Shown here: positions 3,729 through 35,605 of the stretch, piece by piece
Layout: the number at the start of each line of letters is the position of its first letter
Position numbering within the stretch: the first letter of the stretch is position 1
Position numbers and translations under genes: made by a program
The notes under the pieces: generated by a model
Told to the model about the DNA's origin: nothing
Seen by the model: only the letters and a program-made list of their open reading frames with translations
Database searches by the model: none
Assembly (NCBI GenBank): GCA_003990765.1
Contig: RBNJ01000245.1
Span: forward strand, 1-35,605
Origin: Jimgerdemannia flammicorona
Taxonomy: Eukaryota
Length of the DNA: 35,605 nucleotides
Direction: 5' to 3'

Positions 3729-5605
3729 AAGAAATAATGTTGTTGATCAATCATATCCTCTACAAATCTGCATATAACTCCTCCTGTACCAAGTCTAAAT
3801 CTTCAGTTGCCCGGGCCTCCAACCCTACCAGAAGTTCAGCCAGTACCCTATCCTCTTTTTCCTCAAAGTCCCCATGATACTCCAGACATTTCTCTTGCCA
3901 GAGTTGCAATCTATACTGCTCAGCCCAATAGTAGGCAGCTCACTCACCAGCAATAACTGCCAGCTCAGCCTCTCTTGTCTTATCAACCTTATATCCCTCC
4001 TCCTCCAGAAAAATTGCAAGAATCTCTCCCTTCAGTGCCTCCACTACCTCATCTCTATGTAGGATCTATACCTGGGACATCCACCAACTCATCCTCACCA
4101 GCTACCTTGCTAACTACCACCACCCAACCCCCTTTTGCCACATTGGGAACCCCAAAGTGAACCCTCTGAGCACTCTTCATCAACATATCCTCTGCTACCT
4201 GATCTCTTGCAGCTAGATCCCACCTGATCAGAGAGGGAGTGTTCTCCATAACTGGGTCCTATACTTCAAATGTGCCATCAGTAAATAGGTCCTTATGTGG
4301 CACCTTCTCAGCCCCTTCCAGGCCCTCCTCCCCAATGCTTCCACTCTTTCCAGCCCAGATACTCGTCTCTATGCCCTCAGGCTTCTCAGCACTCCCAGCC
4401 TCTATCTTCACCCCTCCTTTCATGCTCACCAGCAGCTCCCACTGCCTTTTGCACCCTTGAGCCCTCTCCCACTGCCTCTTATCAGTGTGAATATGCTTCC
4501 CATCAATAATCTCCAGATGCATCAACTCTACATAAAGCTTCCAGGCCTTTGCCTGCTATTCAATCATACCACTCAACTCCTCCAGCACTTCTAATAAGTC
4601 CTCCTCCTCCTCTTTACTCCCCTTCATCCTTGATACCTTATAGACAAATACCCCCCACATCAATACTGAGGGCCAGTCACTCACCTTCTCTGTGGCCTCC
4701 CTCCCTGCCAGTCTAATCCTGATATCAACATTATCTGTTCTAATTGCAGTCCCCTCCCACACCTGGAAGCCAATATCCACTATGTTGCCATACTCTACCA
4801 TTACCTCCTCCACCCTCCTCCTAGTCTCAACCTTTGTCACCATAGGCACCCCCTTCACCAGCAACTGTATCACTCTGGGGTCCCACCTAAGGCACTGTAC
4901 CATAGGGATCACTACTTCCCCAATCATCACTCTAGTCTTCAGCACCTCATCCAGTAGGCCTGCCTCCTCAAAGCCCACCTCAATCCCCTTCAGCCCCTTC
5001 AGGAACTTCACTGAGGCTGCCCCAGCCACCTGCTGCAAGATAAGCCCCAGGACTATCCTTGCAGTCACCACTAAGTCCTGAAAGCACAAGGTAGCTGCAA
5101 ACTCCAAAATTGACTTCTCGAGTAATGGTGCCACCACTAGCCCTATCACACCATCAGCCAGGTCCCCCTTCTGCTTTGGGCCCATCTGTCCAGCCCCATC
5201 ATCAGTAGTCACATATGGATTTTTTTCCAGATTCCCAGTTATGCTACTATCAGCAGTTCCACCACTACTCTCAGCAGCCACCCCACCAGCCCTACCACCA
5301 ACTGGCTGAGGTCCAGCAACTCCAGTTCCTCTAGCTTCTCCAACCTTCTGCTTCCCCTTCCCTCTAGCCTGCCCACCCTGAGTCCCCAATGGCCAACTAT
5401 CATCTTTCAGTATATCTGCAAAGCTTCTCCCTATCTGCCCTCTAGTCTCACCACAAGTGCCACTTCTACTGCCCAAGCTGTCCTGTCCACTCAGACCACC
5501 AAAAGACCCCATCCCAAGCCCATCCCTTTATTGGACATATTGCCAGTCAAAGGCCCCAGATCCATCTGACCTAGTACACATATCTGCTTACTTGCTGGTT
5601 GACAT
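3725..5605 (-). pseudogene. LINE B1 ORF1 (~626 codons, several premature stops)
   Basis: ATG at 5605 (MSTSK*ADMCTRSDGSGAFDWQYV) is in frame with track ORFs 4556..5512, 4259..4525 and 4055..4249. It is homologous to the other ORF1s (CLRWDP...V.G.P). Confidence 0.8.
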
Positions 5606-5684: not shown

Positions 5685-6040
5685 ATACTGGCTATAGCTC
5701 TCTTGCTCCACACTACAGTATGCCAGGCCTTGATTCCACCAGACCTCCCCTGATCACCAGCCCCTCTAGCAGCTATGCAAGTCTCTACAACAGCTGCAAA
5801 GCTCTTAGGAAGGCCCAGACCAGGCCTCCTCCTCTCCAGATGTTTAGAGCTAGAGGAACCTTGACTAGTCATATTACCAAAACTTAATGGTTTTTGCCAA
5901 AACTTATTGTACCTTATAGATAGACTCCTGCTGTATAATATACACTAATGTGATTGAAATAAAAACTTGAAAACATATTGTCTTTTGCTGAAAGATATCT
6001 GTGTGGCTTAGCTTGCTCTGTGGTTTGATCAAAAGAAGTC
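5685..6040 (-). mobile_element. 5' fragment (5'UTR + ORF1 start) of a family A LINE (copy A3), interrupted by B1
   Basis: 5873-6040 aligns closely with the A2 5'UTR at 30534-30703 (GACTTCTTTTG...GCTAAGCCACACAGATATC). ORF1 begins MTSQGSSSSKHLERRRPGLGLPKSFAA, and homology stops at ~5685. Confidence 0.9.
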
Positions 6041-7544
6041 TCCCCACTAGACACCATGCATGGGCATATCCTCTACCACTTGGCCCCTTGCAGCTGGACT
6101 CTGCCTGATCAGAGGAGTAGGTATAGGAGACTGCTCCCAGACTTCAAATATACCATTCTCATATTAGTCCTCACTCAGTATCTTTCTGGTCTTCTTTAGA
6201 CCCACCTCCATATTCTCCCCATGCCCCCCAGCCCAGACACTCACCAAAGCTCTCCCAGCATCCTCACTACCATCAGTAACCTTTATCTTCTTCACCTCCA
6301 GACTTACCAGCAACTCTCTCTACCTTCTGTTACCTTGGATCCTCTCCTACAGCCCCTTATCAACATGGACCCACTTCTCATTGATAATCTCCAAGTGCAT
6401 TGACTCCACATACACCTTTCAAGACTTCATCCTCTACTCTACCACACCACTCAGCTCCTCTAATGCCTCCAACAGGTCCTCCACCTCCTCACTCCTCTTG
6501 ACTCTTGTCACCTTATACACAAAAGCTCCCCACATCATCACCAAAGGCCAATCATATACCTTACCAGTTGCCTCTCTCCCTGCCAGCTAAATATGGATAT
6601 CAACATCTATTAATTAGAAGGTGGTCCCTTCCCAGACCCTAAACACTATATCAACCACCTCCTATATTCAGCCATAACCTTCTCAACTCTCCTCCTCATT
6701 TCCACAGTTGTCACTATAGGCACTCTCTTCACCAGGAGCTATATCACTCTGGAGTCTCATCTCAAGCACTATACCATTTGGACACACACCTCCCCCACCA
6801 TCAATCCAGCCTTCAGTACCTTCACCAGTGGCCCTGCCTCCTCAAAGCCCACCTCTATCCCTTCCAGGTCCTTCAAGAACTTAACAGAAGCTGCGCCTTC
6901 TACCTGCTTCACAATCAACCCCAGTACCATTTTTGCCATCACTGCCAAGCCTCTGAAGTACAGGATGACTGTGAATTCTGAGATTGACTTCTTGAGTAAT
7001 AGTGCCACTACTAGTCCTATTACACCATCAGCTAGGGCACTAGGCCTCATGCCCATCTCACTACTCAGTACACCATCAGCAGTCCCATCTGGATTTTTTT
7101 CCAGATTGCCCATTATACTCCCATCAGCAGTCACTCCCTCAGTCACTACACCACTGGCCCCACAACTCTGGCCCCCCAGAGGAGCTCTCTCTTGAAGCCC
7201 CTGCTCTATAGTCTTTGTCATTGCCTTACCCCCCCTCAGCCAATTCTCCAGCCCAGCTCCCTGCTGACCTCTCTTTATCTTCTTTATAAAGCTTGCCCTC
7301 TCTGTCCTCTGGCCTCCAGCACCACCCCCTCCCCTACTCTGTCCTCCTGCCAGCAGGCCCCTCATGCTTTCCCTTAAGCTAGAGCCCCTCCCCACATACT
7401 GCCAGTCAAATACACCAGGGCCACTCTGCTTAGTATATATCTCAGAATGCTCGTTAGTCACCATAATACTAGTATTTTTTCTCCAAAAACAGTGTTGAAA
7501 GTGTTACCAGAAGATTGTATAACCTGAATATTATTGAAGAAAGA
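6041..7544 (-). mobile_element. 5' part (5'UTR + ORF1) of a family B LINE (copy B2), interrupted by A3
   Basis: ORF 6769..7464 (MVTNEH...FDWQYV...GNLEKNP...GAASVKFLK) is homologous to B1 ORF1 and continues with stops to ~6041. The 5'UTR has ACACTTTCAA...TTGGAGAAAA like B1. Confidence 0.85.
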
Positions 7545-11704: not shown

Positions 11705-13378
11705 TAAGTATTCTTATTAGATTAATCTAATTGAAATCTCAGCTATTTCATCTATAAATGAAATCCAAGGAGAGTATTTATAAATATACTAATCACATTA
11801 ATATTCTAGTAAATCAGATAAATTCTCTAAGAATACTAGAAGATAATATCAGTAATAAAGATAAAATTCTGGCTCTTATATAAGGTCTTCTCAAGATATC
11901 TAATATTATAATAGTAGTCATAATAATATGAGAGTAGGAAACTTATAGACTATACTTATATAACAATAAGTCTTATTAATAAAAAGATATATTAAGAAAA
12001 TAGTAGCAATATTGAAGATAAGAAAGTATTCTACAGATTATACAGATGAGGCAAAAAGTACCAACAAGGCAAAATTTAATAGAAACTACTATTACTATAT
12101 TGAATATAGATATATATAAAATAATTACTATTATAAAGATAAAGAGTATGATGAAAATAAGTATAGAAGTCAGTGTTGATAATGTGGAAGCAGTAGAAGG
12201 AAATTTGATAGCTAAGAGTAATATAATATAAATACTATCAAAACTGATAACAATAGTGATATATTTTTTTATATAAGTAATATCTATATATATATATCTA
12301 TCAATAGGACTATAGTCAGTAAAAATACTAATACTACTAATAATAATGATATTTAGCTTATAGATTTAGGTACTATATAATATATGTATAACAGTTTACT
12401 AAGAATAGTTCTCAATATATGAGATGTTTGAATGTCTCATATCTATTAAGTTAGGTAATAATATATCATATATACTCAAGAAAGAGAAAATATCAGTATA
12501 TATCTCTATAGGAATATCACAAAGTCTATCAGTATTTTTTAGAATATACTATATACTTTGAAAATAGAAAAGAATTACTTTTTAATTAGCAAAATGATAA
12601 CCCATAGTGATAAAAAAAATATATATACACCTGATGAGAGCAATAGTATATAGTTTGAAGAATAATAAAGAGATTATAATAATATTAAAATGAGGCAACC
12701 TTTATATAATCAATAGTATACCAAGTGATATAAAGATATCTATATATATAATAACTACATCTGATATATCTAATATATGGTATCAATGCTTGGAAAATAT
12801 AGAGAAATTTAACTTAGAAAAGATGATTAGAAATAGATTAATATGAGAATTACTGACAATATACCTTAATGATAAATTTTGTAAGAATTGTATAGTAAAT
12901 AAAGTATTCCAGTATCTTTTTGAGAAGTAGATAATATATATATCCAGTATATTTAATTTAATCTATATAGATATATGTAACTTAATATATACTACTTTCT
13001 ATAGAAAGAAGAGATATTTTATCATATTTATCAATAACTATATATATAAGATATAGGTATATTCCTTATTAGTAAAGAGTAAAGCCTTGGATAAATTCAA
13101 AAGAGTTTTAAGCAATCATAGAGAATTAAACAAAATGTAAAATATATATTATATATTCGAATAATATATATAAATATATCAATAGTATATTTAAGTAGTA
13201 TCTGAGAAAATATAATATATACTATTAGATAACAGTACTATATACACTATAGTAGAATAGTATAGCTGAGCAATTTAACTATATAGTTATGGAAATAGTA
13301 CAAATGATAATCAATGTAACCAGATTATCATATTCTTATTCAACTGAAGTTATCAATATAGTGGTATATATATATAAC
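11705..13378 (+). mobile_element. Outer Ty1/Copia element, gag-protease-integrase part (very eroded; 5' LTR not in view)
   Basis: Relic protease motif IDxGxT..MY (~12358-12390, cf. DSGATxHM), WYQCLE (~12778, cf. WHxRLGH), IYIDIC (~12961), RYFIIFINNY (~13012) and YT..QNxxAE.FN (~13240-13280). Confidence 0.8.
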
Positions 13379-13515
13379 TATTATAAAATAGAGAGAAAGA
13401 AGCAATTGTTTATTAATTAAACAAGTTGTACTTTTACATATTAAGATTAATAATATAGATAAAGATTAGCTATACTACTATATATTAAGATATAATAGAA
13501 ACTTAGATTTTAATA
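13379..13515 (-). repeat. 3' LTR of inner Copia
   Basis: Aligns with 21722-21850. The termini TATTA...TAATA are eroded TGTTG...CAACA, and a purine-rich PPT relic lies at 13516-13526. Confidence 0.88.
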
Positions 13516-15314
13516 CTTCTGCTCAATGAGATATATATGAAAAATAAAACTAACAAATTATAACTAATGAGATACTATCTAAATAACTAAAAAAAAAATC
13601 TAAATTCCCCACTTATAAGTATGAAAATAGATAAAGAATATAATAAAAGATCAATAATATAGATTTATTCATAAATAAAGAGATATCAGTAATATTAGAG
13701 TAGCTTATTAGTACTCCAAAAGACCTTCTATTATTGTCATATTGTCATTATTGCTATTGCTTTTTGCTTACTAGTATAAAATTTTCTGTAAGTTCTATTT
13801 CTTATATATAAGTTAAATTTTGTCTTAGAAAGAGCTTTAGTTAATAAATCTGCCATTATATACTCTGTTAGAGTATATTTAAGATATATAGTACTGTTTT
13901 CCATATATTTATATATGAAGTAGTACTATATATTGATGTATTTCATTCTAGTATAATATATAGGATTTTTTGCCAAAGCTATTATAAAGTGATTGTCTTG
14001 TTGAAATAGTGTAAAGTACTATATAACTCTTTTAGCAGTTTTTAAAGCTATATAGCTTTCTTTATTACTATTGATAATACTTAATATTTTACTTATATAA
14101 AGGATATCATCATGGAAGATTACTTGTATATTTGTTATAAAATAGCTCTGTTTTTACTAATTTAAAAAAGATATATATATAGTCATAGAGCGCTAATTGT
14201 CAAGATCTGATCTTATCTATATTACATATACCAGTTAGTCTTATAGTTCTCTCACATTATCCTTATTATCATTATCCCAACTGAGTATATAGTATGCCAT
14301 ACTTTTAATATACTAGAAAATATTCTTAATTATCATCTTATATATATTATTATAGTAAGATAAGTATTGTGCTACTTTGTTAACTATATATAATATATTG
14401 GGTCTCATTCTGAGTATAAGATATATGAGAGGTCTCATAGTTTACCAATAGAGATATTATTATCTTTAGATATAGTATTACTAGACTTCTTTAGTCTTAC
14501 AGATATCTCAATAGATATTCTAACTAGCTTATATTTACTTATACCAAATTGTTCAAGTATAGTCCAAATATATATAGCTTATAATAGCTATATAATATAT
14601 TTATACCTATTATATATAATTGATATTTTAAGAAGATAGAATATATTATCCATATCTATCATCTTGAATTTCTGATATAGTGTTATTTTGACTTCATTAA
14701 TCTCACTTGCTATTCTAATCACAATAATATCATCTATTTAAATTTCTAGATATACTATTCCTGAAAATATATACTAGATATATATATATAAGTAAGCCTT
14801 ACAATACTTAAATCTATTATTTAAGAGATATTTATTGATCTGCTTATTTTAGAGATATATTACTTACTTAATTCTTTATAATTCTTTATATAATTTATAT
14901 ATAAGCTTATTTCTGTCATTATTATATAATTTATATTTCATTGACTGAGATATATATAGCTCTGATTACAAGAAGTATTCTAAGTAAAGTGAGCTTGAAT
15001 ACTAAAGAAAAGGTCTTATTATAGTCTATATCATATCTTTATAAATACTCCTTTATTACAAATTGAGCTTTATACTACTCTCTCATTTTATCAGCTTTAT
15101 GCTCAATCTTATAGACCTATTTCAATCTTATAGCTTATCTATCTGCTAAGAGAGAGACTAGATCCCAGATATCATTCTCAATTAGTAAATCATATTTCTC
15201 CTCTATAGTCTTTTTCTACTCCTTTTTATCATCCAAGTTTATGGCTTTATTGTAGTATACTGGTTCACTAGTTATTGTAATATAGGCACACTTATAAGTA
15301 CTAATATAATTCAC

Positions 15315-16841
15315 TCCCATATATCTAAGCCACCAGGAGGGTGAGTATCCCAAATTTTGGAGGCCACAAGCATAGGCTCTAAGGAGCACTAATAGGTGTA
15401 TCTCATCTCTTAGGTATAGGAGTCCCATATGGTCTTTTCAGCATGGCCATAGCTTCCAGTTTCAGCAACTTACAAAGATTTCAAGAATTTCAGGCAAGAT
15501 GACAAGACAGTAAGATGGTAAGACAGCAAGATGGCAAGATGAGCAAGATGACAAGACAGGCAAGAGGGGTAAGAGGGGTAAGATGGACAAGATGGATAAG
15601 ATGGACAAGATGGCAAGACAGGTGACAGGAGCAAGATAGGCTGACAATAAGATAGGCAACATGGGCAATATGGACAATATGGGTGATATGGGCAATACAG
15701 ATAATACAGACAATATGAACAACACAGGCAACACAGGCAGGCAAGATGGGCAAGATGGACAAGATGGGCAAGATGGGCAAGATGGTAAGACAACAAGATG
15801 GATGATATGGATAAGACAGGCAGATAGTAAGATAGACAATAGAGGCAAAATAGGCAAAATAGGCAATATGGGCAATATGGGCAATATAGGCAATATGGAC
15901 AATATGGGCAACATGGGTGGGCAAGATGGGCAAGATGAGCAAGATGGGCAAGATGGGCAAGATGGGCAAGATGGGCAAGATGGCAAGATGATAAAATGGA
16001 TGATATGGGCAAGATAGGCAAGATAGGCAAGATAGACAAGATTAGTAAGATGGACAAGATGGATAAGATGGCAAGATGGTAAGATGGGTGACATGGGCAA
16101 GATGAGCAGATGGCAAGACAGATAATATGGACAAGATGAACAAAACAGGCAAAATGGGCAAAATGAGCAAAATGGGCAATACAGATAATATGGGTAGATA
16201 ATATGAGCAATATGAGTAATACAGACAATATGAGCAATATGAGTAATATGGGTAACATGGGTAATATGGGCAATATGAGCAACATGGGTGGGCAAGATAA
16301 GCAAGATAAAAAAGATGGACAAGATGGCAAGATGGGCAATATGGGCAAGACAGGCAGATGGCAAGACAGGTGATATGGGCAAGATGGGCAAAATGGGCAA
16401 AACAGATAACATGGGCAATACAGGTAACATGGGCAACATGGGTGAGCAAGATAGACAAGACAGGTAAGATAGATAAGATGGGCAAGATGACAAGATGGCA
16501 ACATGAGCAATATAGGCAATATGGGCAGATAAAATAGATAAGACAGGCTAGATAGACAAGATAGAAGACACTAATAGGAGTAGGTCAGGTATACTAGATG
16601 CCAAGTACTTGAGGTGGTTGGAGCTCACAACCCATACTCACTAGGTGAGGCAGGTCAGGTAAGAGGATCTAGTTACTCAGGCAGTGAGGTTGCAACTCAT
16701 ACCCTAAAGGTATAAGGCTAGATGAGTGTAAAGGTGGGTTGAGATTAGAATGGAATGGAGCTACTGATGTTATATGAGAACATGTGGCATATTATAGATA
16801 GTTAATAAATGAGGCTACAGCCTATAGAAAAAAAAAAAAAA
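15315..16841 (+). mobile_element. Non-autonomous VNTR-containing retroposon (SINE/SVA-like architecture)
   Basis: AATAAA at 16804-16809 and poly(A) at 16828-16843. TSD AAGTACTAATATAATTCAC (15296-15314) versus AAGTACTGATATAATTTAT (16842-16860), three transitions apart. The Copia sequence is continuous once it is removed. Confidence 0.85.
15491..16568 (+). repeat. Degenerate 9-bp minisatellite (GGGCAAGAT / GGGCAATAT, with 8-bp variants)
   Basis: Directly visible tandem array of about 1.08 kb with alternating blocks of the two unit types. Confidence 0.97.
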
Positions 16842-17595
16842 AAGTACTGATATAATTTATATAATATTTGCAGTTGCAATGAGATGTCTTAGATATGTCC
16901 TAATAACCTCCTAAATCTACTTCAACTTTATTTTGTAGCCTAGATCTATACTTTTTCTTACCTTTTAGAGAGGTATTCTCATTACCATTCTTATCTATAA
17001 TTTCTATAATTCTTAGCTCCAATAGTCTCATTAGTATATATATAGGCTACACTACTACTGTAAGAGGGTTGCTTTTTAGGATAACTGTTACGTAGTTCTG
17101 GAAGGGTTTTCGGGAAGTTCTGGATATTCTGGAAGTCCATTTTCTTATGGTCAAGATCAATTTCATATAGAGTACGTCCTCTACACTTATTGATTTCTAG
17201 ATCGGGTTAACATCTCAACCAAAGTCCTTTTTCAGACTAGTTCTGGATGTTCAGGATTTTCCATATTTCAGGAGTTCAAGAAACTAAGACCAGCTTAGTT
17301 GAATTGGCGTATTGCTGCAGACAATACCCAATTAGGAAATTTCGTGATGGAGTTAGGAGTGGGACCTAACAGGGAGTAGATTTACTTAAGAGTGGTTTGT
17401 AGGTTATTGAATAGGTTTATTTGCTATTCATGATATTGCTATACTAGGAGTAGTTGTGTAAAGGGATATTGTGGGGAAGTATTCAAGAATGTTCTTGTGT
17501 ATTCGAGTCTCAGATTCTGAGGTCTGGGGGGTGGTATTTATACTAGTGAGGAGCTATCTGGACTATACTGAATATGGATGTAGCACTAAGTGCCT

Positions 17596-19010: not shown

Positions 19011-21705
19011 TGATCAAGCAGGTGATTTCCAGATTTGTTCAGAGGTCGCGTGTGATTTCAGTGGCTTGGAGGTTGTGTGCTTACAACTACTGGTATAGAT
19101 ACTGAGGATATCTTTTTCAGAATTTTAACTACTGTTCTGAATATAGAAGTTTTTTACTCATCTTTGAAGTTAGTATAGATGTCACTGGCTATATTATTGA
19201 GTTGGATATAGAGATTGGAATTTTTATATAAATTTTCTACTTAGTCTCCTTGAACTGAATATTATAAGAGATAATTATATAGTATTTCTGTAAGTTCTAT
19301 AGTCTTATACAGCTCTGTTATATTTAAGAAATATATACTTATCTGACTTAAGCTTAAATTTATCTTTATTGTTACCTTTATTTAGAATATAAGTCTTACT
19401 TCCAAATATCTATAAATATGAGATATCTGACTTAGATTTACTTTATAATTCTTCAGAGATAAGATTAGTATCATTTCTAGATTATTGATTATTGCCAGAT
19501 TTCTTACTAAAAGCTTGAGAAATATAATAATTTTGGATATATGTATACTACTGTATTCACTGCTTTGGCCCAAAAGGAGTATAATAGCTAGCTATATTTA
19601 TTATCATTTGAGCCATCTCTGCCATTATTTAATTAAAGTATTATATTCCACAGTTCTGCTGAGATATATAGGGTACCATTATAGTGTATTGGATACTATA
19701 CTTCTTTAAGAAGTATCTGAAAACTTTATTGATATATTTCTTACCATTATCAGAGCATAGAGTCTATATCTTATATCTTATTTTATTTTCTATAATTGTC
19801 TTAAATTCTTGAAATTTTTCAAATATCTCATTCTTCTCTATAATAGACTTTATAAGTATAATTATCAATAAAGATAATAAAATATCTCTTTTTAGAGTAT
19901 ATTAGAGTTTATATAAGACTATAGATATTTATATATATTAGATCAAGAATATCAGTTACTTGCTTCATCTATTTCTGAAAAGGTCACTGAGAAGTCTTAT
20001 TGACTATATATTTATTGCAAAAGCTGAAATCTGGTGATATATAGTTTAATAATATATATACAGATTTATTACTTATTACCTGTTCTAGGCTTATCTTACT
20101 GATATATTTTAAGTATTTATACTACATATACTAGAGATTCTCTCTAATTATAGTTGCAGAATATATAGATAATATATTACTTAGTATATTGTTAATTATA
20201 AGTTTCTCTTTTTTGATATATATATTAACTTCTTATTATTCTTTTGATTGATTATTATTATAATATTTAGATATATATTTACTCCTCTGTCTCCTTAGAC
20301 TATTATCTGGCCTATTGAGAAGAGATTATTACTTATACATATCTAATATATATAGTATATTCATGAAGGTATCTAAAGGTTTATCAATATTGTTCTTATC
20401 TTAAATATAGATGATATTATTATTACCCAGTTTAATAGATATAGAGTACTCAAACTTCTCATATATAGAGGACTACTTACAGAACTATTATATACTGTAT
20501 TATACTAGAATCTATGAGCCAGACTTCTTCTCTATATATATAAGCACTATTCAGTATATAGTTTATATTGGTACTGATACTATTGATATTAATATCAGTA
20601 TTTTTCTCTATCTGAAATTATTTTTCCAAATTCACCCCTATATCTCTCTTTATATATCATAGGTTATTACTTCTGTAAAGAATAAACCTTTACTACCACT
20701 ACTTTCATTACTAGTATTTATTATATTTGTCTACTATTGTTCTTATTACTATTAAATGCTCTTTTCTTTCTTATAATTACAGTTCTACTCATAATATCTA
20801 TACTTATTATAGTTAAAGTATTTACTTTCAAATTTCTGACTATTATATTACTGGCTTTGATTTTGCTCTTTTGTTTAGCTTGCCTTTATCTTATCTATAT
20901 ACTCTGTAGAAGACTTTCTCATCACTATCCTCATTAGTATCATTGCCATTACTACTCAGTCTTGATTTCTTTAAAAGGTATATAATGATATACTTATAGT
21001 CCAATAATCTACTAAATTCCTTCATAGTAGTGATAATAATGTTGTATGTCTTAGAAAGGCCTCATACATATAAGGACCAGGACTTGTCTTTGTCCTTAAT
21101 AGTATCTATCAGCATAGATATAAGAGAGTTTACTTAATTTGCTAGCTCATCAACTTAATTGGTATAGTCCCAGATACTCTCTTTAGACTTTATTTAGAGA
21201 TTGAACAGTTGTACTTTTAGATGAAATCTATTTGATACAGATGTCTATTGATAGTAATTATATAAAATCTTTCAGATATTATTCTCTATTATAGAATTGA
21301 TTATAAGCTTCTTTTGTATATTTTAAAGAATGAATATAATCTCTCTTAGTACTTTGTGATATTTTGTAGTATTATATCTCATTATTTATATCTGTGACTT
21401 TCAGTAGTCCTCTAAACCACATTCCTCTAAGAGATTCTTCATATTATATCTATATAGTTTAATTCTTACTATTGAAGATAGAAATAATTCTCTTTAGTAT
21501 TATTATTAATACTACTAAAAGAATGGTTATAGTTATAACTATCATAATAGATGTACTTATATTATCAGTATCTGTTCTGAGTTCTGTTCTACTTATACTA
21601 TCTGAAACTAGTATACTTCTACTACTAGTATTAGTCAATATTGTATAATATAGTATATTATATATATTTGAAGAATATCTATATTATTATTTACTTTTAT
21701 CTGTA

Positions 21706-21717
21706 GAGCTCATAATC
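21706..21717 (-). promoter_or_regulatory. Primer-binding site relic of inner Copia
   Basis: GATTATGAGCTC lies 4 nt inside the 5' LTR, two transitions away from GGTTATGAGCCC, the PBS common in fungal Copia elements. Confidence 0.65.
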
Positions 21718-21721
21718 TTTT

Positions 21722-21850
21722 TGTTGTAGAATAGAGAGAAAGAAGTTTGATTAAGCAAGTCATGCTTTTTTATATCAAGATTGATAATATAGATGAAAAT
21801 TGACTGTACTACTATATATTGAGATATAATAAAAACTTATATTTTTAATA
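21722..21850 (-). repeat. 5' LTR of inner Copia
   Basis: TGTTGTAGAATAGAGAGAAAGAAG...TTTTAATA, a direct repeat of 13379-13515. Confidence 0.88.
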
Positions 21851-23982
21851 ATAACTGATATATATTTTGAGTATTAAGCAAGAAATCCAGCAATAATAGT
21901 AAGTGTTCCAGAGATAATGATCTTACTTCTAAAGAATTATAGAGTAGAATAAAGAAAGATATATATATACTTCTATACATATTTAGATATAATATATATA
22001 TTCTTAATAAGAGTAATGCTAATCAGTATAAGTTTAAGCTAAAGTGAGTAGATATATATTTCTTAAATATTTTAGCAAAGTATATCAACTCTGGAATCTA
22101 TATAAATATTATATATATAGTAATCTTATATAATATATAGTTCAATAAAAATAAAAAAAAAACAGAAACTCTATATAAATAAATTTATCAGAACCTCTAC
22201 TTTAATATCTTAATATATAAGTATATATAATATCTAATATCAATCTCTTCAATAAAGTAAAATTATTTTCAACTATTATATATATATATCTAAGTAAAAG
22301 TTACCTAAGCTAAGTATAATAAAGAGTATAATTTACTTATTGAGAATGATATATGAGATTTAGTATAAGAATGATAGAAGTATAGAGTAATATAAAGTAT
22401 ACTTTATTGTTCAAGGTTATTTATAAGATTATAGTATTAACTATAATGAGATATTTTTGCTAATATTTAAGCTTACTTTTCTGAGAACACTTCTTATAAT
22501 TGGTACTATATATAATCTGAAAATCTATTAGATAGATATAAAGATGGCTTTTCCTAATAGTGATATAGATATGATTATATATTTGCTAACTATAAGAATA
22601 TAACCAGAATAACCTATTATATAAACTATATAAAGAACTATATATATGGTATCAAGCAAGCAGTTTATTTATAGAGTAGAAAAATCAATAAATATCTTTT
22701 TAATAATGGCTTCATATATTGTAAAGTGAATAACTATATATATATTCAATATTATACTATTAGAGTAGCTTTCATCAATATTTGGATTAATAATATAATC
22801 ATTATTATAATGAAGAACAGATTTAGTAGAGTTAAAGAAGTCCTGTATAAGAAATTTAAGATGACTAATATAAGTAACATATTCATTGTTTTGAAGATAT
22901 CTATTATATATAATGAGAGTATATATATTATATATATATATATATCTCACAGTTAGCTTCTATTCAAGTTATCTTAGAATAATTCAGTATAAGTAAATAT
23001 GTATAAGCCTATTAATACTCCTATGGACATATCTGTGAAGTTAAAGAAGCTTAAGACAAATGATAATAATAATAATATTCTTTATTGATAAGTAGTCAGT
23101 TCTCTCATATATGTACATATCTTATATTAAGAATAAGATCTGATATTTTATATATTATAAATAAGATAGTACTATACTCATCATACTATAACAATTGGTA
23201 TTAGATTATTATTAAGAGAATTTTTAAATATATTAAAGAAATAGTATACTATATACTTACTTTTGATAAAGTAAGTAGAAGCAATAGTAATAATAATAAT
23301 AAGAATAGCATACAACTATTCAACACATATAATACTGATTGGACTAGAGACTTAGATGATTACTGATCTATAATTAAATATTTCTATTAGTTAAATAATA
23401 AAGGAGTTATTTTATAACAAATATATAAGTAGAATTTAATAGTAATATTATTTATATAAGTAGAGTACCAAGTATTATCTATAGTAATAAAGGAAGCTAT
23501 TTGGCCCTACCAATTACTAAAGGCTCTAGGCTTTGATCAGAAATGAAACCCTATACTCATCTATTAGAATTACTAATTTATGATTGCTATGGCAAAGTAC
23601 TCTATATATTACTCCAGAATAAAGTATTTAATGTATAGCACTATTATATAAGGGAGTGCATGAAGAATGAGACTATATACTTGAAATATATCTCTATGAA
23701 GTATATGATTACAGATTCACTTAACAAAGTTCTTTTGAGATCTAAATTCCAGCAATGTACTAAAGAAATGAGTTGTATAGTAAACTATATACCAGCAATA
23801 GATAATGGATAATTATGTGATATTTCATAACAAAAAGGAAGCAGAAAAACAATACAATATATCTCTCTCTTCAAGCATTATTTTGCTCTATTCCATTCTA
23901 CATTTGAGGTTTTCTACCATTAGGACCTATCTATATTCTTCATTTTCACTATAGTTTCATATGTTTTAAGCATAGGTAGATA
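21851..23982 (+). mobile_element. Outer Ty1/Copia element, integrase C-terminus, RT-RNase H and 3'UTR
   Basis: Resumes after the TSD ATAAC. Relic D.KMAF.NSD (~22530-22570), YGIKQA (~22645), YSRIKY (~23610) and MITDSL.K (~23705). The 3' LTR is not reached before LINE A1. Confidence 0.8.
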
Positions 23983-24150
23983 GCATTCTTTTACAAACCA
24001 TTCTGAGCGAGCTAAGCCACACAGACAACCTTTTGTGAAAAGCAACACATTTTCAAGTTTTCACTTCATTCATACTGGTGTGCAAGGTGCGGCAGAAATC
24101 TGTCAATAATTCACAGCAAGTTTCATCCAAATCTGTCAAGTTTCAGTGGT

Positions 24151-24900
24151 ATGGCGACCCAAGGCTCATCAAGCTTGGAGTGCCTAGAGAGGAGGAGGCC
24201 TGGCCTGGGCCTACCCAAGAGTTTTGTGGCAGCAGCTGGTCAAGGAGGGGCTGGGGGACAAACAGGAGGTCGTGGATCAGTAGCAGGACTGGGTGGATGG
24301 CACACAGTGGTGGGGAGTAAGCTGGTAGCTGCTAGGCCTGCAGTTGGGGGGCAGCAGGGGCATAGTGTTAAGAGGGGTGGACATCAGGTGACTGGTCAGC
24401 TGACTGGCCAGAGACCCAGCAGGGGTCAGGGGTCCGGGGGTGTGATGGCTGGGACTGGCTTTCCTGGGGCTGGGCCAGTGGCTGGAGGTGAGACTGCTGG
24501 TAGTGCAGTAGCTCCTAGCGAGATGGTGGCTGGTATATCTGGTAGCAAGAACAAGGCAACCCTGGCAGTAGAAACTGGAGAGCTGGTGGTATAACCATTC
24601 TTCCATAAGTCAGTGTCATCATGGGCAGTCTCCACCAACTTCTTGGGCCTTGGTCTGTCAGTCAAGGAAGTTTTACGGCTGGTGGGTGAGGAGGTTGCTG
24701 GGGCTGAGTCACTGAGGTATATCCCCTTGGCGGAGGCAGTTGAGGTCAGATTTGTTGAGGAGGAGGCCATGGTGAAGGCCTTGGAGAAGGGGTTGATGGT
24801 CAAGAATGTTAAGGTGGGGATGGCGAGGTGCCTGAGATGGGATCCATATGCAGTGAGGTTAGTGGTAGAAGGACTGCCAACGCTGAGTAGGCAGGAGACT
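24151..24900 (+). pseudogene. A1 ORF1, 5' part
   Basis: Track ORFs 24151..24594 and 24613..24993 are homologous to 29751..30533. Confidence 0.88.
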
Positions 24901-25022
24901 TTTTTTTTTTTTTTTTATATTACCTTGGACTCCTTTATTACGAACTATCTAATACAATATCAACTAACCACAACCACTACTAACATCATATAACATATAT
25001 AAGTAGAGCCCTTCAACCAACT

Positions 25023-28000
25023 TCAACCAACTCCTTCCTTCCATCTCACCCCTTGATCATCTAAAATCAGATACCCTCGACTCCTCTGTACAATGTCCTG
25101 TACCTTCTTTAAGGCCCCTGATTGAAGTTGCTTCCCCTGATACCACTATCCCTGAACCACCTCCTGGAGAAGCCACCTCCACTACTCCACCATCTCACCA
25201 ATCTCCATCCATAGGTCCTGTTCAAAAATCCACCACCAATGTACTGCCATCAAGACCCAGACCCCCAAAACTTGACCAAGGCCCCCCCATATATCACCAA
25301 TTTCCCCTATTAGCTGGTGCTTGACCACCAGACTGGTCAGATCCTCTGCCCTATGCCTCTCAGAGCCCCAGTAATCTTCCAAACACTGCCAAAATCCTTC
25401 CACACCTGGGCAGGCCCCCAGAATATGTTCTGGTGTCTGAACCACTCCTCTATCAATCTCATCACACCACTTGCAGTCCCGACAGCCATCCACCTCCATC
25501 CAGCCAGTCCAATAGCCCAGCATCACATTATGTCTTAAAAATCACCACCAAACCACCCAATATTTGGATGGCACCATCTAGTGTACTGAGGTTCCCCAAT
25601 TCCAAATTCTAACCCACTCCCAGTCTTCACTGATACCAGCTCTCTGCCACCCAGGCAGCCATCTCTCCAGAGGGCCAGACCTGATCCACTCCATTGCCTC
25701 AATCAGGGAGTACTCCTTCAGACTATGGCCACCAACATGAAGGTCTCCCAGTCGCCACCACCTCTGCTCAGGATTCTTACCCACCTCAATCTCTGGGCCT
25801 GTCAATCCCATGGCCAGCCAGGCCTCTACAATACCCCACCAGAACTCCTTAAACCACAGTCAGCCTATACTTCTAACTTGAAGCAAGCCCCACATATTCT
25901 TCCAAACCTCACCACGAGGGCAGAACCAGACCTTCCAATTGTCCATGGTCAGCCTGCCCCAACCTTCTTCACCTAGTTCCATCATTCGGCACCACCACCA
26001 GCCCCGAAGCACCTTCAGCCAGCATCTGAAATCCACCAACCCCAGGCCTCCATCTGAAGTCCTCATTACTAAAGTCTCCCATCCAATCTGCAGACGCCTC
26101 CCCTGTCATAACCACCCCTCAACAATCTTCTTCAACTGCTGCACCACCCACCCTGGGAAATCCAGATGATAACCCAGATACCACAGTTTGGGCAGCCAGT
26201 ATACATTCAAGACCACTATCCTGCTGACCAAGGAGAAGCTCCTCCCTGACCAACCTGTCAGAGCACCTTCCAGCCTCTGAATTAAACCACACCACCACTC
26301 CTTTGGCAGGACTGTCCCATATACTGAGAACCAGATACCCAGATATTGAACCACACTCCCTATGGCTACCAATTGTCCAAATTGTCTATGACCCCCCAGG
26401 CCAGCACCAAGTTCCATTGTCTTGCACTTGCCCCAATTCAACTTTGCCCCTGCCAGTCTCTCATACTGTCCAACCTCTTCTTGCAGGGCTTCTACATCCT
26501 CCTGACTACCCAACCCTACCACCATATCATCTGCAAAGGCACCCAGCTGCCAGACCACATCTTCCATCTTCAGTCCTGAGAGCTGCCCCTTCAGCCATGC
26601 CAGCAGAGGCTCTAGAGAAAGTACATAACGAAGGGGGGAGAGAGGATCCCTCTGCAGTACCCCTTGCCCCAAGGCAAACTCTGGTCCACACCATCCATTC
26701 ATCATGACCACTGCTTGGCATCCCCGTACTAAGCCCATCAGACACCCTGCCTCTATAACACCAAACCCAGCCCTCCTCAGAACAGCCTCCAGATAACTCC
26801 ACTGCACTCTGTCATAGGCCTTCTCTTGATCCAGAAAGACCATCTGGCCATCCACCCACCAGCTCCTACAGCTCTCTAAAATATTCTACACCCAGGCAGT
26901 ACTATCTCTGATCTGCCTCCCCTTGACAAAGCCATGCTGCTCCTCCCCAACTAGTGTACCAACATACTGCTGCATCCTCCCTGCTAGAATCTTCGACACC
27001 AACTTTCTATCCACATTCAGCAGCATAATAGGCTGCCAATTATGCCACACCCATCGATCCCCCTTTTCCTTATATAGAAGAGAGACCAGCCCCAAGGGAC
27101 CATTGCCTATCCAGCAGCCCTCCTTCAGAACAGCATTGGCCATCTCCACCAACCAGTCACCAAACTTGGCCTTGAACTCCTTCCAGAATTCCCAGGGCAA
27201 CCCATCCTCTCCTGGTGACAAACTAGTCTGCATCTTTCTCAGTACTTCCAATACTTCATCCAGGGATACCTTTCCCATGACTGCTTCCCCTATCTCAGGT
27301 ATCACTGTCACCAGCCAACTGTTCACCATATTGTCATTATCTACCTCAAACTCTGTGCCCTCCGACTACTCCCTGCCATCCTGCCAAAGAGCCTACCATT
27401 GGCCAGATATCTCCCCTAATATCAGTAATTCCAGAGACCTCTACTCCATCTTCACACAAAACTGAAGCCTAGCTATATCATACTCTCCTGGCCTTCAAGA
27501 TACCAGACAGATATCTCATCGGTCTCTCTCCTTCTTCCAACTGTCTGACTTGTAGCCTGGCCAGCAGGCCATCTACCACCCTGGTCTCTGACACCTTTAA
27601 ATCTACCTGCAACTCAGCCACCTCTAATGCCAAATGGTGGCACACCTCCCCAGACAAGTTCCCCTTTTCCAAGAGCTTCAATCACCATCTCAGCCCCTTC
27701 TCCACCCTCCTTTATTTGTCCTTCTGTTCATTCCCAGTCACTTCTCCAACATCATGCCAGTAAGCACCAGCCAAGTGTTTGAATTTACCCCACCATTCCG
27801 CTATCAACTGCCCTTCATTCTGCCATTGCCTAACTTCCTGTTTCATAACTACTACAAAATTGTCCCTCTCCTTCTTCTTCTGAGTAAGGCCACATTGAGG
27901 CACCAGTGTCCACTACCACTGCCTGTATCTTGGAATCTCCCGCAAACCTCCACTCCCCAGTGATCTGACCAAGGGCACCAGTGCACCTCAGCAGTGTCCA

Positions 28001-28652
28001 AAACATTACCCCAGCACTCCGCCACTAGCACCCAGTCTATTCGTGTCTCAACCAAGGTTGTTCCCACTGGGTGCTACCTGGTGAAAGGTCCCACCACATC
28101 TCCCTGCTGCTGATGAACACCATCCACCAAGCCCATGTCTCACTCCACCTGAAGCCATTGAGAAAGTCCATGTGACACCATGACTTCTGCTCCACCATCA
28201 GATCTGTCCAGTGCTCGATCACGTACCATATTGAAGTCCTCCTCCAAAATGTCCAAAGCAACTACCTCCCGACCATCCCATGCCTGCCATCCCTCAACCC
28301 ATTGCTTTCACTCTCTGCTAACTGCAGGGAGGTAAACCGATCCAACCGTCAAACCATCACCTGCCCCTCCTTTTAGTCTTCCCCAAATTAGTCTGTCACC
28401 GAAGCTCTCCACCTCCACCAACTTGTCTTTGTCTATACCAATTAAGATTCCCACCTGCATATTCCAACCTGCTCCACCATACCATTCTTTACTCCAAATC
28501 TCATAGTCTGACTCACCATAAGCCCGAACATCCTGAAGAAACATAACATCATACCTCCTGACTTTAAGCCATCTGAAAAGCCGCCATCTTTTAACACCAT
28601 CCTGCAATCCATTGACATTGATTGATAAAATACGTAGATTGTTCATCATCAT
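25023..28652 (-). pseudogene. A2 ORF2: APE endonuclease, RT, CCHC domain (stops, local frameshift ~27450-27880)
   Basis: LRILSINVNGL, FLQDV, TRIDW, WSDH, SPGEDGLP, DQEKAYDRV, FADD, and CKWC...TPEHILGAC. Confidence 0.93.
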
Positions 28653-28664
28653 TAAGGAAGTTGT

Positions 28665-30533
28665 TTAAAGCTCAGCTGGAACTACCACTACCTTCTCAGC
28701 CCTTCCTCTAATGATCTCCTGCTAGTCCTCACAAATCGCCCTCCAGATTTGATCACTATTTTCACTGTTGCAGAACAGGTCCACTCTTTCTGCTGCCACC
28801 TTCCTGATGTCAGCCATTTGGTTCTCATCAACATCATATCCTTCATCATCCAGAAGGGCAGCTACCATCACCATCACCAGCTTAGGCCCCTACATCGCTA
28901 CCTTGAGAAATCCTTCCCATACCTCCTGAGATCCATGAAATACATCCACTTCCTTGATATCCTCCTCAGCCAGCTCCTCCAACACTGCCTGGTACCAACT
29001 CTCTGCCATCATCACCAGGGGCCCAGGAGTTGAAGGCCTGGGGGTTTTGCTCAGTTCTTGCAGTTGTTCTCTGTCTGCCGACACATCAGAAGCCACATCC
29101 ACCAGCTCATCCTCCTCCACCACCTTCTCCAAATGGATTACCTCCCTAGCTTCTGGGCACTCCCAATGCACATTCACCACCCCAGCCATATGGGTGTCCT
29201 CCACCTAAGTTTCCGGCACCACCTCAGCATCAACCTCAAAGCCTCCTTCACCAACCTCCTCCTTATCTGCCCACTTCCCTCTCACTGGTGCATGTGCCGA
29301 GTCCTCTACACCACCCATCTGAGAGAAGGACACCTCTGCCACCTCCACTCCTTCCATCTGATTCTTGGCCGCCTCTACTCTTGTCTCCTCTTCCACTGCC
29401 ACCCCCTGAAGGGCTACCTCTAGATGCTCCCAGTTCTCTTTTCTCCACCTCTTCCACTTGCCATCTGCCTCGATCCAGACCCAATCCTTTGTGTACTCCT
29501 CCCACTTCCTCTTTCGCAGCTCCTTGGCAGCCTCCCTCTCCTCCAGAGCGATTGCTAACTCTTCCTCCTCCTGTTCTGCTCCCTTCCTCCTCCACACCTT
29601 GCACTCTTGCCCCCCAATCCTAATCCCTTCAGGCCAATCATGGCCCAGCCCAGTTGCCTCCTTGCCTTCCAAATACAGCATCACCTTGCAGTTACCATTC
29701 TGCAACTTGGTGCTCTCCCAGAGCATGAATCCGAAGTCCACCATCTCACATTATCCACCCAGTGCCTCCACCACCATCTCCTTGGTCTCCTGCCTGCCCA
29801 GAGTAGGCAGTCCTTCCACCACCAGCCAAACAGCACATGGATCCCATCTCAGACACCTCGCCATCCCAATCTGGACACCCTTGACTGTCATCTCTTTCTC
29901 CAGTGCCTTCACCATTGCCTCCTCCTCCACAAATCCAATCTCCACAGCCTCTGCCAAAGGGATGAACTTCAGAGACTCTGCTCTAGCCACTTCCTCCCCC
30001 ACCAGTCTCAGAACCTCCCTTGCTGACATTGCCAATCCCAGGAAGTTCACCAAGATTGCCAATGTTGACACCGATTTATGAAAGAAGGGCCTCACCACCA
30101 GCTCACCAGTCCCAGCTGCCAGAGGCACCTTTCCTTTGGCCCCCAAAACACCAGTAGTTGTTCCACCAGGTATAGCTGTACCACCCACAGTCTTCTCCCC
30201 AGCCATCTGCCCAGCTACAGAAGAACCAGTCCCCAGCATCACGCCACCAGACCTCTGTCTCTTGCCAGCCACCTGACCTGTCACCTGACTTGTCACCTGA
30301 CCTCTCCCCCTGTCAACACTATGTCCCCCCTGTCCAACCCCCATGGGCCTAGCTGCAGCCCTCCTATTCCCAAACACTGTATGCCAGGTCTCAATCCCTC
30401 CAGTCCTCCCCTGCCCACCTGCCCTTCTAGCAGCCACACCAGCCCCTGCAGCAGCTGCAAAGCTCCTGGGAATACTCAGACTGGGCCTCCTCCTCTCCAG
30501 ATGCTCAGAGCTAGAGGAATCTTGACTAGCCAT
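28665..30533 (-). pseudogene. A2 ORF1 (~622 codons, a few premature stops)
   Basis: Track ORFs 29751..30533, 29205..29744 and 28890..29204 share one frame. Confidence 0.88.
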
Positions 30534-30720
30534 GTTGCCAAAACTTGACGGTTTTCCTTGAAACTTATTGTGCCTTGTAGATAGACTCCTGCTGCACGAT
30601 GTACACCAATATATTCGAAATAAAAACTTGAAAACATGTTGTCTTTCGCTGAAGGATATCTGTGTGGCTTAGCTCTCTCCAAATGGTTCAAGCAAAAGAA
30701 GTCCAAGTAGGCAGGAGACT

Positions 30721-31839
30721 AAGATGGTGATCACCAAGGCTCTGGAAGGCTTTGGCAAGATGGTGGATTTCGGATTTATGTTTTGGGAGGGCACCAAGTT
30801 GAGGAATGGTAATTGTGAGGCAATGGTGTGGCTGGAGGGGAAGAAGTCAACAGGCCTCAGGCGAGACTGGCCAGAGGTCATTTGTGTTGGGGAGCAGGAT
30901 TGCCGGGTCTAGAGGAGGAAAGGCTCTGAGCAGGAAGAGGAGGAGCTGCTGATAGCCCTTGAGGAGTGTGATGAGGCAAAGGCTTTGCAGAAAAGGAAAT
31001 GGGAGGAATTTGCTAAGGATTGGATCTGGATTGAGATGGATGGCAAGAGGAAGTGTTGGCATAGGGTGAACTGGGAGCGGCTGCAGGCAGTGCTGCGAGC
31101 ATCTGAGGAGGAGGAGGTTGAAAGGGTGGCATCTGACAGAAATCATATGGAAGGGGTGGAGGTGGCAGAGGTGTCCTTCTCGCAGTTGGGGGGAGTGGAG
31201 GAATCTGTGCATGCACCTGTAACAGGGAAGTGGGCAGGTGGTGAAGAAGAGTGAGGAGAAGGATTCAAAGAAAATGTGGAGGTGATCCCTGAAACTCCGA
31301 TGGAAGACATGGTGATGGCTAGGTCGGCAAATGTGTACTGGGAATGTCCAGAAGCCGGGGAGGTAGTAAGGTTGGATAAGGTCTCTGAAGAGGATGAGCT
31401 GGTGGATATCGCTTTGGATGTTTCAGCAGACAGAGAGCTGCTTCAGGAGCTTTGCTGGACTCCCAGGCCTGCGACTCCAGGGCTGATGGCAATAGTGGCA
31501 GATGGTTGGTTCCAGGCAGTTCTGGAGGAGCTGGCAGAGGATGACATTAAGGAAGTGGATGTGTTTCAGGGCTCTCCAGAGGCGTGGGACAGATTTCTCA
31601 AGGTGGCACTGCAGGGACCAAAGCTTGTAACTGTAATGGTGGCAGCCCTTCTGGAGGATGAAGGGTATGAGGTGGATGATGACTGAATGGCAGATATCCA
31701 TAAGGTGGCATCCAAGCGAGTGGACTTCTTCTGTAGCAGTGTCAATGGCAAAAGAATTTGACGAGCAGTCTGTGAGGAGCATCAAGACATCATTAAGGGC
31801 TGAGCTGAGAAGGTGGTAGCAGTGGTGGCTGATATCTAA
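30721..31839 (+). pseudogene. A1 ORF1, 3' part
   Basis: Track ORFs 30724..30912, 30985..31254 and 31276..31686 are homologous to A2 ORF1 (28665-29744). Confidence 0.88.
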
Positions 31840-31853
31840 ACTCCAAATTTTCC

Positions 31854-34800: not shown

Positions 34801-35492
34801 ACTATTCTCTGGTTGAGGCAATGGAATGGGCCAGGTCGGGCCCTCTTGAGCAGTGGCTGGTAGGATGGCAGACAGCTGGTATTGGCGAGATGTGGGAATA
34901 GGGTAGAATTTGAGGATGGGCCACTACTCTAAATAAGGTGGTACTCTATCAGTATTGGGTAGTTTGGTGGAGGTTCCTGAGAAGGAATGTCATGTTGAAC
35001 TATTGGACAGGATGGATGGTGGTCGATGGATGCAGGGATTGTGAATGGTGTGCAGAGATCTCTGGAGAAGTGGTTCAGACCCCAGAGCATGTCATAGAGG
35101 CCTGCCCAGGGGTGAAGGGCTATTGGCAGATGCTAGAGGAATATTGGGGCTCTGATTGAAGGAGGCTGGGAGAGTCGGCTAGTGTCGTCATCCAGAGGAG
35201 ACTGGTGGGAGATGTTGGGGACATTTGGGGAGGTGTTGGGCAGATCTTAGGAGTGTGGGTCTTAATGGTAGTATACTGGCAATGGGTCTTTGAAGGTGAA
35301 TGTTGGATGGGTATTGGGGACCTGGTTGAGCAATGGTATTGGCTAGTGCAGGAAGTAGTACAGGGTTGGTGGTACCAGGGGAGGCAACAGAAGTTGGGGG
35401 CAGTAAAGAAAGTACATGACATTATAGTGGGGAGTCAGGGTTGTTTGATATTAGGTAAGGGCGAGGTGCAGTGGAAAATTGGGGTGGGTTGA
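31854..35492 (+). pseudogene. A1 ORF2: APE endonuclease, RT, CCHC domain (~1212 codons, premature stops)
   Basis: SINVNGL, FLQDI, GGDFN, WSDH; PGEDGLP, DQEKAYDRV, GVPQGDPLS, FADD; CEWC...TPEHVIEAC. Confidence 0.93.
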
Positions 35493-35605
35493 TTGAACTT
35501 GTAGGTTTATTTCACCCAGATAGTATGGGATAGGATGTTGGCAGGTTATCTTTGTGGTTAATTCATATAGACTAGTGGAATAAAGGAGTCCAAGTGACTA
35601 TAAAA

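Follow-up and report, generated by a model that had tools for sequence, protein, structure and literature searches.

The stretch of DNA considered here, which we call the window, is a whole contig of the Jimgerdemannia flammicorona genome (35,605 nucleotides; G000:C245), and it holds three LINEs together with an ORF-less element that has a variable-number tandem repeat (VNTR) at its core. LINE A1 runs along the forward strand in two pieces, 23986-24899 and 30720-35605, interrupted by a second LINE, A2 (30703-24900, reverse strand), which is nested antisense in ORF1 of A1 (24900-30720 of the window) with a 15-bp target-site duplication (TSD) and an A17 tail. Since A2 inserted into it, A1 is the older host. 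The reverse transcriptase (RT) segment of A1 ORF2 (33465-34130, forward strand) matches PF00078 at E 6.5e-23, the reading frame being broken by stops elsewhere. The third LINE, B1, lies on the reverse strand from about 6040 to 1, and directly upstream of its 5' end lies another fragment resembling a LINE ORF1, with 72% identity to B1 (4425-5257 and 6303-7131). All three LINEs have a common 45-nt 5' terminus, found at 23986-24027 in A1 (forward strand), 30659-30701 in A2 and 5998-6038 in B1 (both reverse strand).

The VNTR element occupies 15312-16843 of the forward strand, between 16-bp TSDs at 15296-15311 and 16842-16857, which, read directly, are equal save for one A/G difference. Its unique head (15312-15492), the third of the head types described below, falls about 20 nt short of the full head and, aligned to the LINE heads, has both CTAAGCCAC and a 5' block in common with the LINE 5' terminus; it is a diverged, 5'-shortened relative of that 45-nt LINE head. 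There follow the core, made of a 9-bp unit with about 114 copies in the main array (15493-16565), a unique tail characteristic of the family (16566-16803), the last 130 nt or so of which are common to another family, Y, and an A16 tract (16828-16843). AT-rich, strongly decayed inverted repeats, 65-71% identical, lie on either side of the insertion (12367-15126 versus 19250-23735), and the VNTR element appears to sit inside an older element.

It is the ends of these elements that concern us. Near its 3' end the VNTR element carries TAGAY (16795-16799), as LINE ends also do, then AATAAA, a polyadenylation-signal-like hexamer (16804-16809), then TG and a 4-bp hairpin with a C-G closing pair, AGGC-TACA-GCCT (16812-16823, arms at 16812-16815 and 16820-16823), followed by ATAG and the poly(A) tail, all on the forward strand. 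A1 ends on the same strand in AATAAA-GG-AGTC-CAAGT-GACT-ATA (35579-35605, with the hexamer at 35579-35584), three A residues preceding the end of the contig, and B1 ends on the reverse strand in AATAAA-GAAAGG-AGTT-CAAGA-GACT-ATA (1-29), followed by a single A. An earlier note on this DNA had described these three ends, and read directly they agree with it letter for letter, the tails of A1 and B1 being cut by the contig ends. The 3' end of A2 (24900-24939, reverse strand) has a 3' arm that is damaged in this copy only. A pattern built from the three ends finds 3 matches in the window against 0.02 expected, a comparison that is post hoc. The VNTR subfamily to which the window copy belongs has a longer hairpin further upstream (16760-16802; z -3.2 for 16760-16840), which we discarded as a shared signal, its 3' arm being deleted in five of six copies of subfamily 2.

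LINE lineages and their partner families

By class the three LINEs are L1/Tx1-like: their RT matches PF00078, their closest relatives carry PF03372, PF00078 and PF13966, in keeping with an ORF2 that combines AP-endonuclease, RT and a C-terminal zinc-binding region, and among named PDB matches human L1 ORF2p (E 1e-20) ranks above R2 (E 5e-13). The label comes from the domain matches and the PDB ranking, the only tree built being an internal one of 19 lineages. The ends agree with it, in that A2 has a poly(A) tail and a 15-bp TSD and copies of the family carry poly(A). Those 19 lineages were obtained by clustering 76 ends by their ORF2, with 2 of the 19 reached solely via a motif pattern, and the median ORF2 identity between lineages is 44%, which was measured on decayed copies and is an underestimate for masters. 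Through this divergence GTC-N5-GAC is kept in 18 of the 19. The spacer between AATAAA and stem varies from 2 to 7 nt, and the link between stem and tail is AT+A in 17 of the 18 lineages with GTC-N5-GAC. In 17 of the 19 lineages TAGAY occurs in the 22 nt that precede AATAAA, against 9 of 95 background windows. The loops, among which CGAG is common, vary more than the stems (CTTGW, CACAT, the fifth base).

Much the same is seen among the copies of single families. Read by eye, the ends of the A1 family keep the stem at 26 of 30 loci when C>T and G>A changes are allowed, these loci being top BLAST hits, which favour whole ends. The earlier note had set A2 apart as an end that cannot pair, and that is true of the window copy and not of its family: 25 A2-family loci, likewise top BLAST hits and so biased to whole ends, yielded 23 readable ends, of which 21 have a paired 3' arm by eye, the remainder being the window copy and one end cut by its contig. 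The exception is a lesion in one copy.

In the genome as a whole (231 Mb) the hairpin-end pattern has 6028 matches, compared with 137 for the reversed pattern. A pattern that leaves out the stem (AATAAA, 12-28 nt, poly(A)), and by its form excludes family X, has 4619 matches versus 487. By eye, its first 100 matches comprise about 91 LINE-type ends, one VNTR end, one of family Y and 7 others, and about 83 of the LINE-type ends keep the stem if decay is allowed. Several damaged LINE ends have lost a few bases of the 3' arm next to the tail, lesions that could have arisen from mistakes as reverse transcription began. On the forward strand, 23 ends have their poly(A) placed immediately ahead of the 3' arm, compared with 1700 complete ones (counts on the reverse strand are inflated by duplicate matches). 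One supposed LINE end with a UUCG hairpin, at L088, was rejected and is actually a 29-nt insert with its own TSD. This CpG-rich insert (L088:1270-1298), with a C-UUCG-G hairpin and poly(A), sits at a LINE AATAAA; it has no Rfam match and could be a recent retrocopy derived from the 3' terminal part of some small structured RNA.

The VNTR element is one of many. Its tail has 354 candidates in the genome, of which the best 40 were scored, at 86-90% identity, and several copies have TSDs of 13-18 bp. Of 142 candidates for the head of the window copy the best 40 were scored as well, and the full head is found in L225-L242. The terminal hairpin is intact in 23 of 30 copies, altered by C>T or G>A in 6 and truncated in 1 (by eye). 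A second subfamily ends GGGC-TCYR-GCCT, for which we infer an ancestral UCCG loop. VNTR elements carry at least three 5' heads (L006, L016, L019, L022, L240): the LINE 5' terminus, the head of family X (in L006 and L016) and the diverged, longer head. The first of these is the commonest (L011, L013, L014, L015, L020, L021, L022), and its 45 nt are 84-88% identical to the 5' termini of the three window LINEs; against the L022 head the figure for A1 is 86% over 44 nt, with 84% over 43 nt for A2 and 88% over 43 nt for B1. This shared head reads as an independent link between the VNTR element and the LINEs, and the range of heads suggests that they have been exchanged between families.

Upstream of the hexamer, the 3' UTRs of the VNTR element and the LINEs had been called unalignable. 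There is indeed no long homology: the 60 nt upstream in the VNTR element beat all 300 shuffles in only 2 of 20 LINE ends, and the features that the 3' part of the element has in common with the LINEs are only TAGAY, AATAAA and the hairpin. The two are nevertheless not wholly unrelated, TAGAY being present both in the VNTR element and in most LINE lineages. We considered for the VNTR element and for family X the identity of a pol III SINE with a tRNA-, 7SL- or 5S-derived head, and dropped it: their heads contain no tRNA (13 of 13 loci), and Rfam gave nothing near threshold at 10 loci. Coding capacity in family X or the VNTR tail comes to only short open stretches in the family consensus.

Family X came to light through the stem itself. 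When the middle left base is required to differ from T and its partner may be any base, the genome has 683 matches versus 0, and by eye the first 100 comprise 92 A-T, 1 G-C, 1 C-G, 1 G.T and 5 mismatched pairs, which is to say 94 Watson-Crick pairs, 92 of them from one family. The A-T ends belong to family X, a gene-less retroposon of 1.18 kb with a poly(A) tail, TSDs of 12-17 bp and subfamilies 72-87% alike, represented by at least several hundred ends, which make up most of the 683 matches (L163-L192, for example L167, L168 and L183). Across 31 ends the stem GGAC..GTCY is kept while the loop varies in length and letters; from the decay products we infer an ancestral G-C at position 1. The family carries TATATA upstream. 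The X-type end clusters all lack an ORF2 upstream, and among the loci examined the X head was not seen on any LINE. At L180, near 1488-1534, an X insertion 5'-truncated to 43 nt consists of the last bases and tail only, with a 15-bp TSD.

Family Y has a tail homologous to that of the VNTR element (77-82% identity at Y loci) and a stem GAGC..GCTC or AGGC..GCTC. L250 (G000:C643:18061-18103), with a Y-type tail, a seemingly decayed AGGC..GCCT stem and a 5-nt loop, is intermediate between VNTR and Y. Within the LINEs, lineage L245, nested in the A clade, ends AGTGC-CTCA-GCACT in 3 copies, a 5-bp stem with a chance of 0.02 by shuffling, and one LINE copy has a double change to a C-G middle pair. 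There are smaller classes too. L200 (G000:C8:66149-66191) is a singleton with the hairpin end GAGC-AAAA-GCTC; no TSDs were seen within the short stretches examined at L252, L253, L200 and L251. Two related AATAAA-poly(A) ends without an obvious stem (G000:C127:16413 and C335:14405) may mark another small family.

Covariation, decay and chance

The central claim of the earlier note was that a covarying terminal hairpin links the VNTR element to the LINEs, and it is supported, over a wider range of elements than the window alone could show. The middle pair occurs as T-A, G-C, A-T and C-G, both arms differ at positions 1 and 2 as well, and between VNTR and Y2, whose tails are homologous, two pairs have changed in both arms. 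The terminal cassette is conserved over 19 LINE lineages and recurs in the VNTR, X and Y families with its stem letters changed and its arms still paired. Registered by hand on the closing pair, and counted without the X row L130 and the L200 singleton, nine end classes have matching bases in 34 of the 36 cells, a level that shuffling within columns attains at 4e-5. That value overstates the case because the rows are related, and position 3 carries most of the signal. A conservative test on four independent classes, in which whole arms are permuted, gives 1 of 24. By chance, 9-18% of such segments would form a 4-bp Watson-Crick stem, and 2% in the 5-bp case. Compensatory changes of the kind expected of a 3' stem-loop are present, in few independent events.

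In folding predictions the LINE hairpin is weak, at -2.4 kcal/mol, and absent from the minimum free energy (MFE) structures of A1 and B1 in contexts of 76-80 nt; the VNTR hairpin is present in both the MFE and the centroid structure of 16760-16840.

Decay has to be kept in mind throughout. The genome is strongly CpG-depleted, and G>A and C>T account for 336 of the 393 substitutions in 25 VNTR tails. Such decay can mimic a change from G-C to A-T, as in L013, but not one from T-A to G-C or from T-A to A-T. To look for covariation from copy to copy is the wrong test, since copies that are dead accumulate C>T/G>A changes; the covariation is visible between families. In metagenomes the un-decayed motif turned up in 7 stretches, none with poly(A) after it and none with an RT match, and we read these as chance. 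We take the hairpin to be a real feature, with a moderately supported structural claim and a putative function.

How the hairpin might be used

The reading that we find best, and toward which we lean, is that the hairpin is a docking mark for ORF2p, recognized by shape and as a preference rather than with strict stringency. A large, old radiation of L1/Tx1-like LINEs would produce RNAs ending in a compact cassette of TAGAY, AAUAAA, a spacer of 0-8 nt, a C-G-closed hairpin of 4-5 bp with a loop of 4-5 nt, a further 3-7 nt and poly(A). ORF2p would hold the hairpin next to the poly(A), which would fix the start site of cDNA synthesis and favour element RNAs over host mRNA, and the VNTR, X and Y families would be copied by the LINE ORF2p via target-primed reverse transcription (TPRT); VNTR and X copies have TSDs. 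If the enzyme recognized the stem and how far it lies from the tail, and ignored the loop, one enzyme set could serve partners with different letters, the hairpin being preferred and not absolutely required. Human L1 ORF2p is reported to bind a stem-loop beside poly(A) in a largely sequence-blind manner, and unpairing that stem to scatter TPRT starts (PMC10830416).

A docking mark fits the fixed link between stem and tail together with the drifting AATAAA spacer. The recognition would not be strict in the sense known from L2 elements, because loops vary, no cognate LINE with VNTR or X letters is found and some copies lack the 3' arm. Several observations count against docking. Of 10 LINE-type ends in 400 kb sampled without bias, only 6 are intact, 1 has a mismatch and 3 are broken; one LINE lineage has T.T at stem position 1; the commoner form of family Y, set in register, offers only C-G, G-C and G.U; genome pattern searches found no LINE with the stem letters of VNTR or X; and the 7 others among the first 100 AATAAA-poly(A) ends belong to no such hairpin family. 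When LINE ends whose middle pair is G-C or C-G were sought as cognates, at spacers of 4-11 nt, the range in which VNTR copies were set apart, there was 1 match, the single C-G copy already mentioned.

The main rival is 3'-end processing. The cassette would then be a self-contained signal for cleavage and polyadenylation, or for RNA stability, addressed to host factors, and ORF2p would read poly(A) only. We think this rather improbable while giving it real weight, for AATAAA and the tail, 17-28 nt apart, always have the hairpin between them, the upstream TAGAY/TATATA resembles the yeast efficiency element UAUAUA (PMC3111234), and the rare stem-less ends fit a fixed cleavage site as well as they fit a fixed RT start. 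The 3'-processing elements of A. oryzae, however, are described as A- and U-rich sequences, the portion of that source at hand naming no hairpin (PMC3111234). The spacer from AATAAA to the stem drifts over 0-8 nt whereas the distance from stem to tail is fixed within the major LINE class, and all three partner families retain the hairpin though any host signal would polyadenylate them. The earlier note had proposed a cis signal for RT or for 3' processing; the hairpin may be such a signal, and no result separates the two.

We regard it as unlikely that only the terminal letters of the LINEs are conserved, with a protein reading GTC..GAC or CGAG, and that the hairpins of the partners are inherited relics or chance pairings. 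Within 18 of the 19 LINE lineages the stem letters are near-invariant and CGAG is common in the loops, neither of which bears on pairing; CGAG is reported as a conserved word at monocot L1 ends too (PMC3472496); and the chance level per class and the outcome of the conservative test both leave room for such an account. What it struggles with is change. The passages from T-A to G-C and from T-A to A-T are double transversions and not products of decay, L245 acquired other letters within the LINE tree and has a stem that is longer and still paired, the two-pair change from VNTR to Y2 took place on both sides in homologous tails, and the LINE loops are more variable than the stems that they join.

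Very improbable, and largely refuted by the flanks of the copies, is a motif that acts as DNA or is a by-product (target-site preference, insertion cruciform or cytosine-deamination pattern): heavy C>T/G>A decay can turn G-C pairs into apparent A-T, yet the motif is internal to the element, on the 5' side of its poly(A), the flanks past the tail differ from copy to copy, the TSDs exclude it, and the 43-nt X insertion at L180 carries it.

To go back to docking, a bolder version of it can be put forward as a tentative possibility, one that we would not bet on. The LINEs may use a third mode of recognition, between stringent and relaxed, in which a minimal hairpin of 4 bp, closed by C-G and placed at a defined distance from poly(A), is read without regard to its loop; any Pol II transcript evolving one would become a partner, and the VNTR, X and Y families would have done so, swapping 5' heads with LINEs and with each other. 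Were this true, it would provide a natural test of the stem-binding surface in human ORF2p, and the hairpin would be, to our knowledge, the smallest known RNA structure steering the choice of template by a LINE. Were the processing account true, mobile elements would have kept a structured poly(A) cassette over deep divergence. The radiation of L1-like LINEs and its three partner families amount to natural compensatory variants of a 12-13 nt element, ready-made constructs for stem-swap, loop-swap and spacing experiments in an ORF2p assay. The larger open question is whether ancestral L1s chose their templates by 3' structure, and how they relaxed to poly(A) only, which at present rests on a monocot and an algal example (PMC3472496).

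Comparison with known systems

The earlier note had likened these elements to stringent LINE/SINE pairs. The likeness extends to a 3' stem-loop with compensatory changes and stops at the loop, which is free here, and at the letters, there being no LINE with the VNTR stem. Stringent pairs are reported to have 45-80 nt of tail in common and to be recognized chiefly by the loop (PMC3472496, PMC4176376), and those of the L1 kind are maize LINE1-1_ZM with ZmSINE2/3 and Chlamydomonas L1-1_CR with SINEX-3_CR (PMC3472496, PMC3747384). With the maize and Chlamydomonas pairs our elements have in common that the LINEs are of the L1 clade, that they have poly(A), that the 3' end is far better conserved than the body and that a hairpin with compensatory changes is common to the partners. 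In maize and Chlamydomonas, however, the homologous tail is about 45-80 nt long, the hairpin is worth -10 to -17 kcal/mol and the loop letters are conserved (PMC3472496, PMC3747384). Here a stem of 4-5 bp follows AAUAAA and precedes the tail, the loop is free, the host is, to judge from named relatives at 35-42% identity, probably a fungus, and the partners are of 1.2-1.5 kb without tRNA heads. Genome pattern searches found no tens of nucleotides of homologous 3' tail between a partner and a cognate LINE, and the loops differ among LINE, VNTR1, VNTR2, X, Y and L245, and within X. Because both a long shared tail and a conserved loop are lacking, we do not class the system as a stringent pair.

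In the L2 LINEs ZfL2-1, ZfL2-2 and UnaL2 the stem letters are reported to be swappable if pairing is kept, while each ORF2p reads its own cognate loop and rejects others (PMC4176376). Dependence of the stem on pairing is alike in our elements; these are, in contrast, L1-like, and their loops differ between LINEs and partners and within families. Stem-loops at the 3' ends of L1 and Alu have also been proposed (PMC5135761), and human L1 ORF2p with the Alu stem-loop is similar in having a structure beside poly(A) that is bound largely sequence-blind and helps define the start of TPRT (PMC10830416, PMC5135761). The Alu stem is long, and the 3' UTR of human L1 itself is said in these sources to lack a similar structure (PMC10830416, PMC5135761), whereas here it is the LINEs themselves that carry a minimal, invariantly placed hairpin. 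In titles and abstract openings, mostly of the open-access literature, we found no published account of such a hairpin in fungal L1s.

Two further comparisons concern the VNTR element. Bipartite non-autonomous LINEs are exemplified by L1Tc/NARTc and Ingi/RIME. Like them, the VNTR element is an ORF-less partner that joins the extreme 5' end of a LINE (45 nt) to a LINE-type 3' signal; unlike them, it has an L1/Tx1-like donor, a VNTR middle, exchanged heads and a 3' tail without long LINE homology. ORF-less bipartite LINEs are listed, in the portion of the source at hand, for RTE, Ingi, Vingi and R2 only (PMC5786205). At its 5' end, then, the VNTR element is what a bipartite non-autonomous LINE is defined to be.

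The other comparison is with the SVA and LAVA elements of apes, which combine a VNTR core, AATAAA, poly(A) and TSDs with Alu-like and SINE-R/L1ME parts and are mobilised by an enzyme of the L1 clade. The VNTR element has the core, the hexamer, the poly(A) and the TSDs in common with them and apparently no Alu-like or SINE-R parts, and its heads and tails match this genome's own elements. We take it to be analogous to SVA and LAVA, not homologous.
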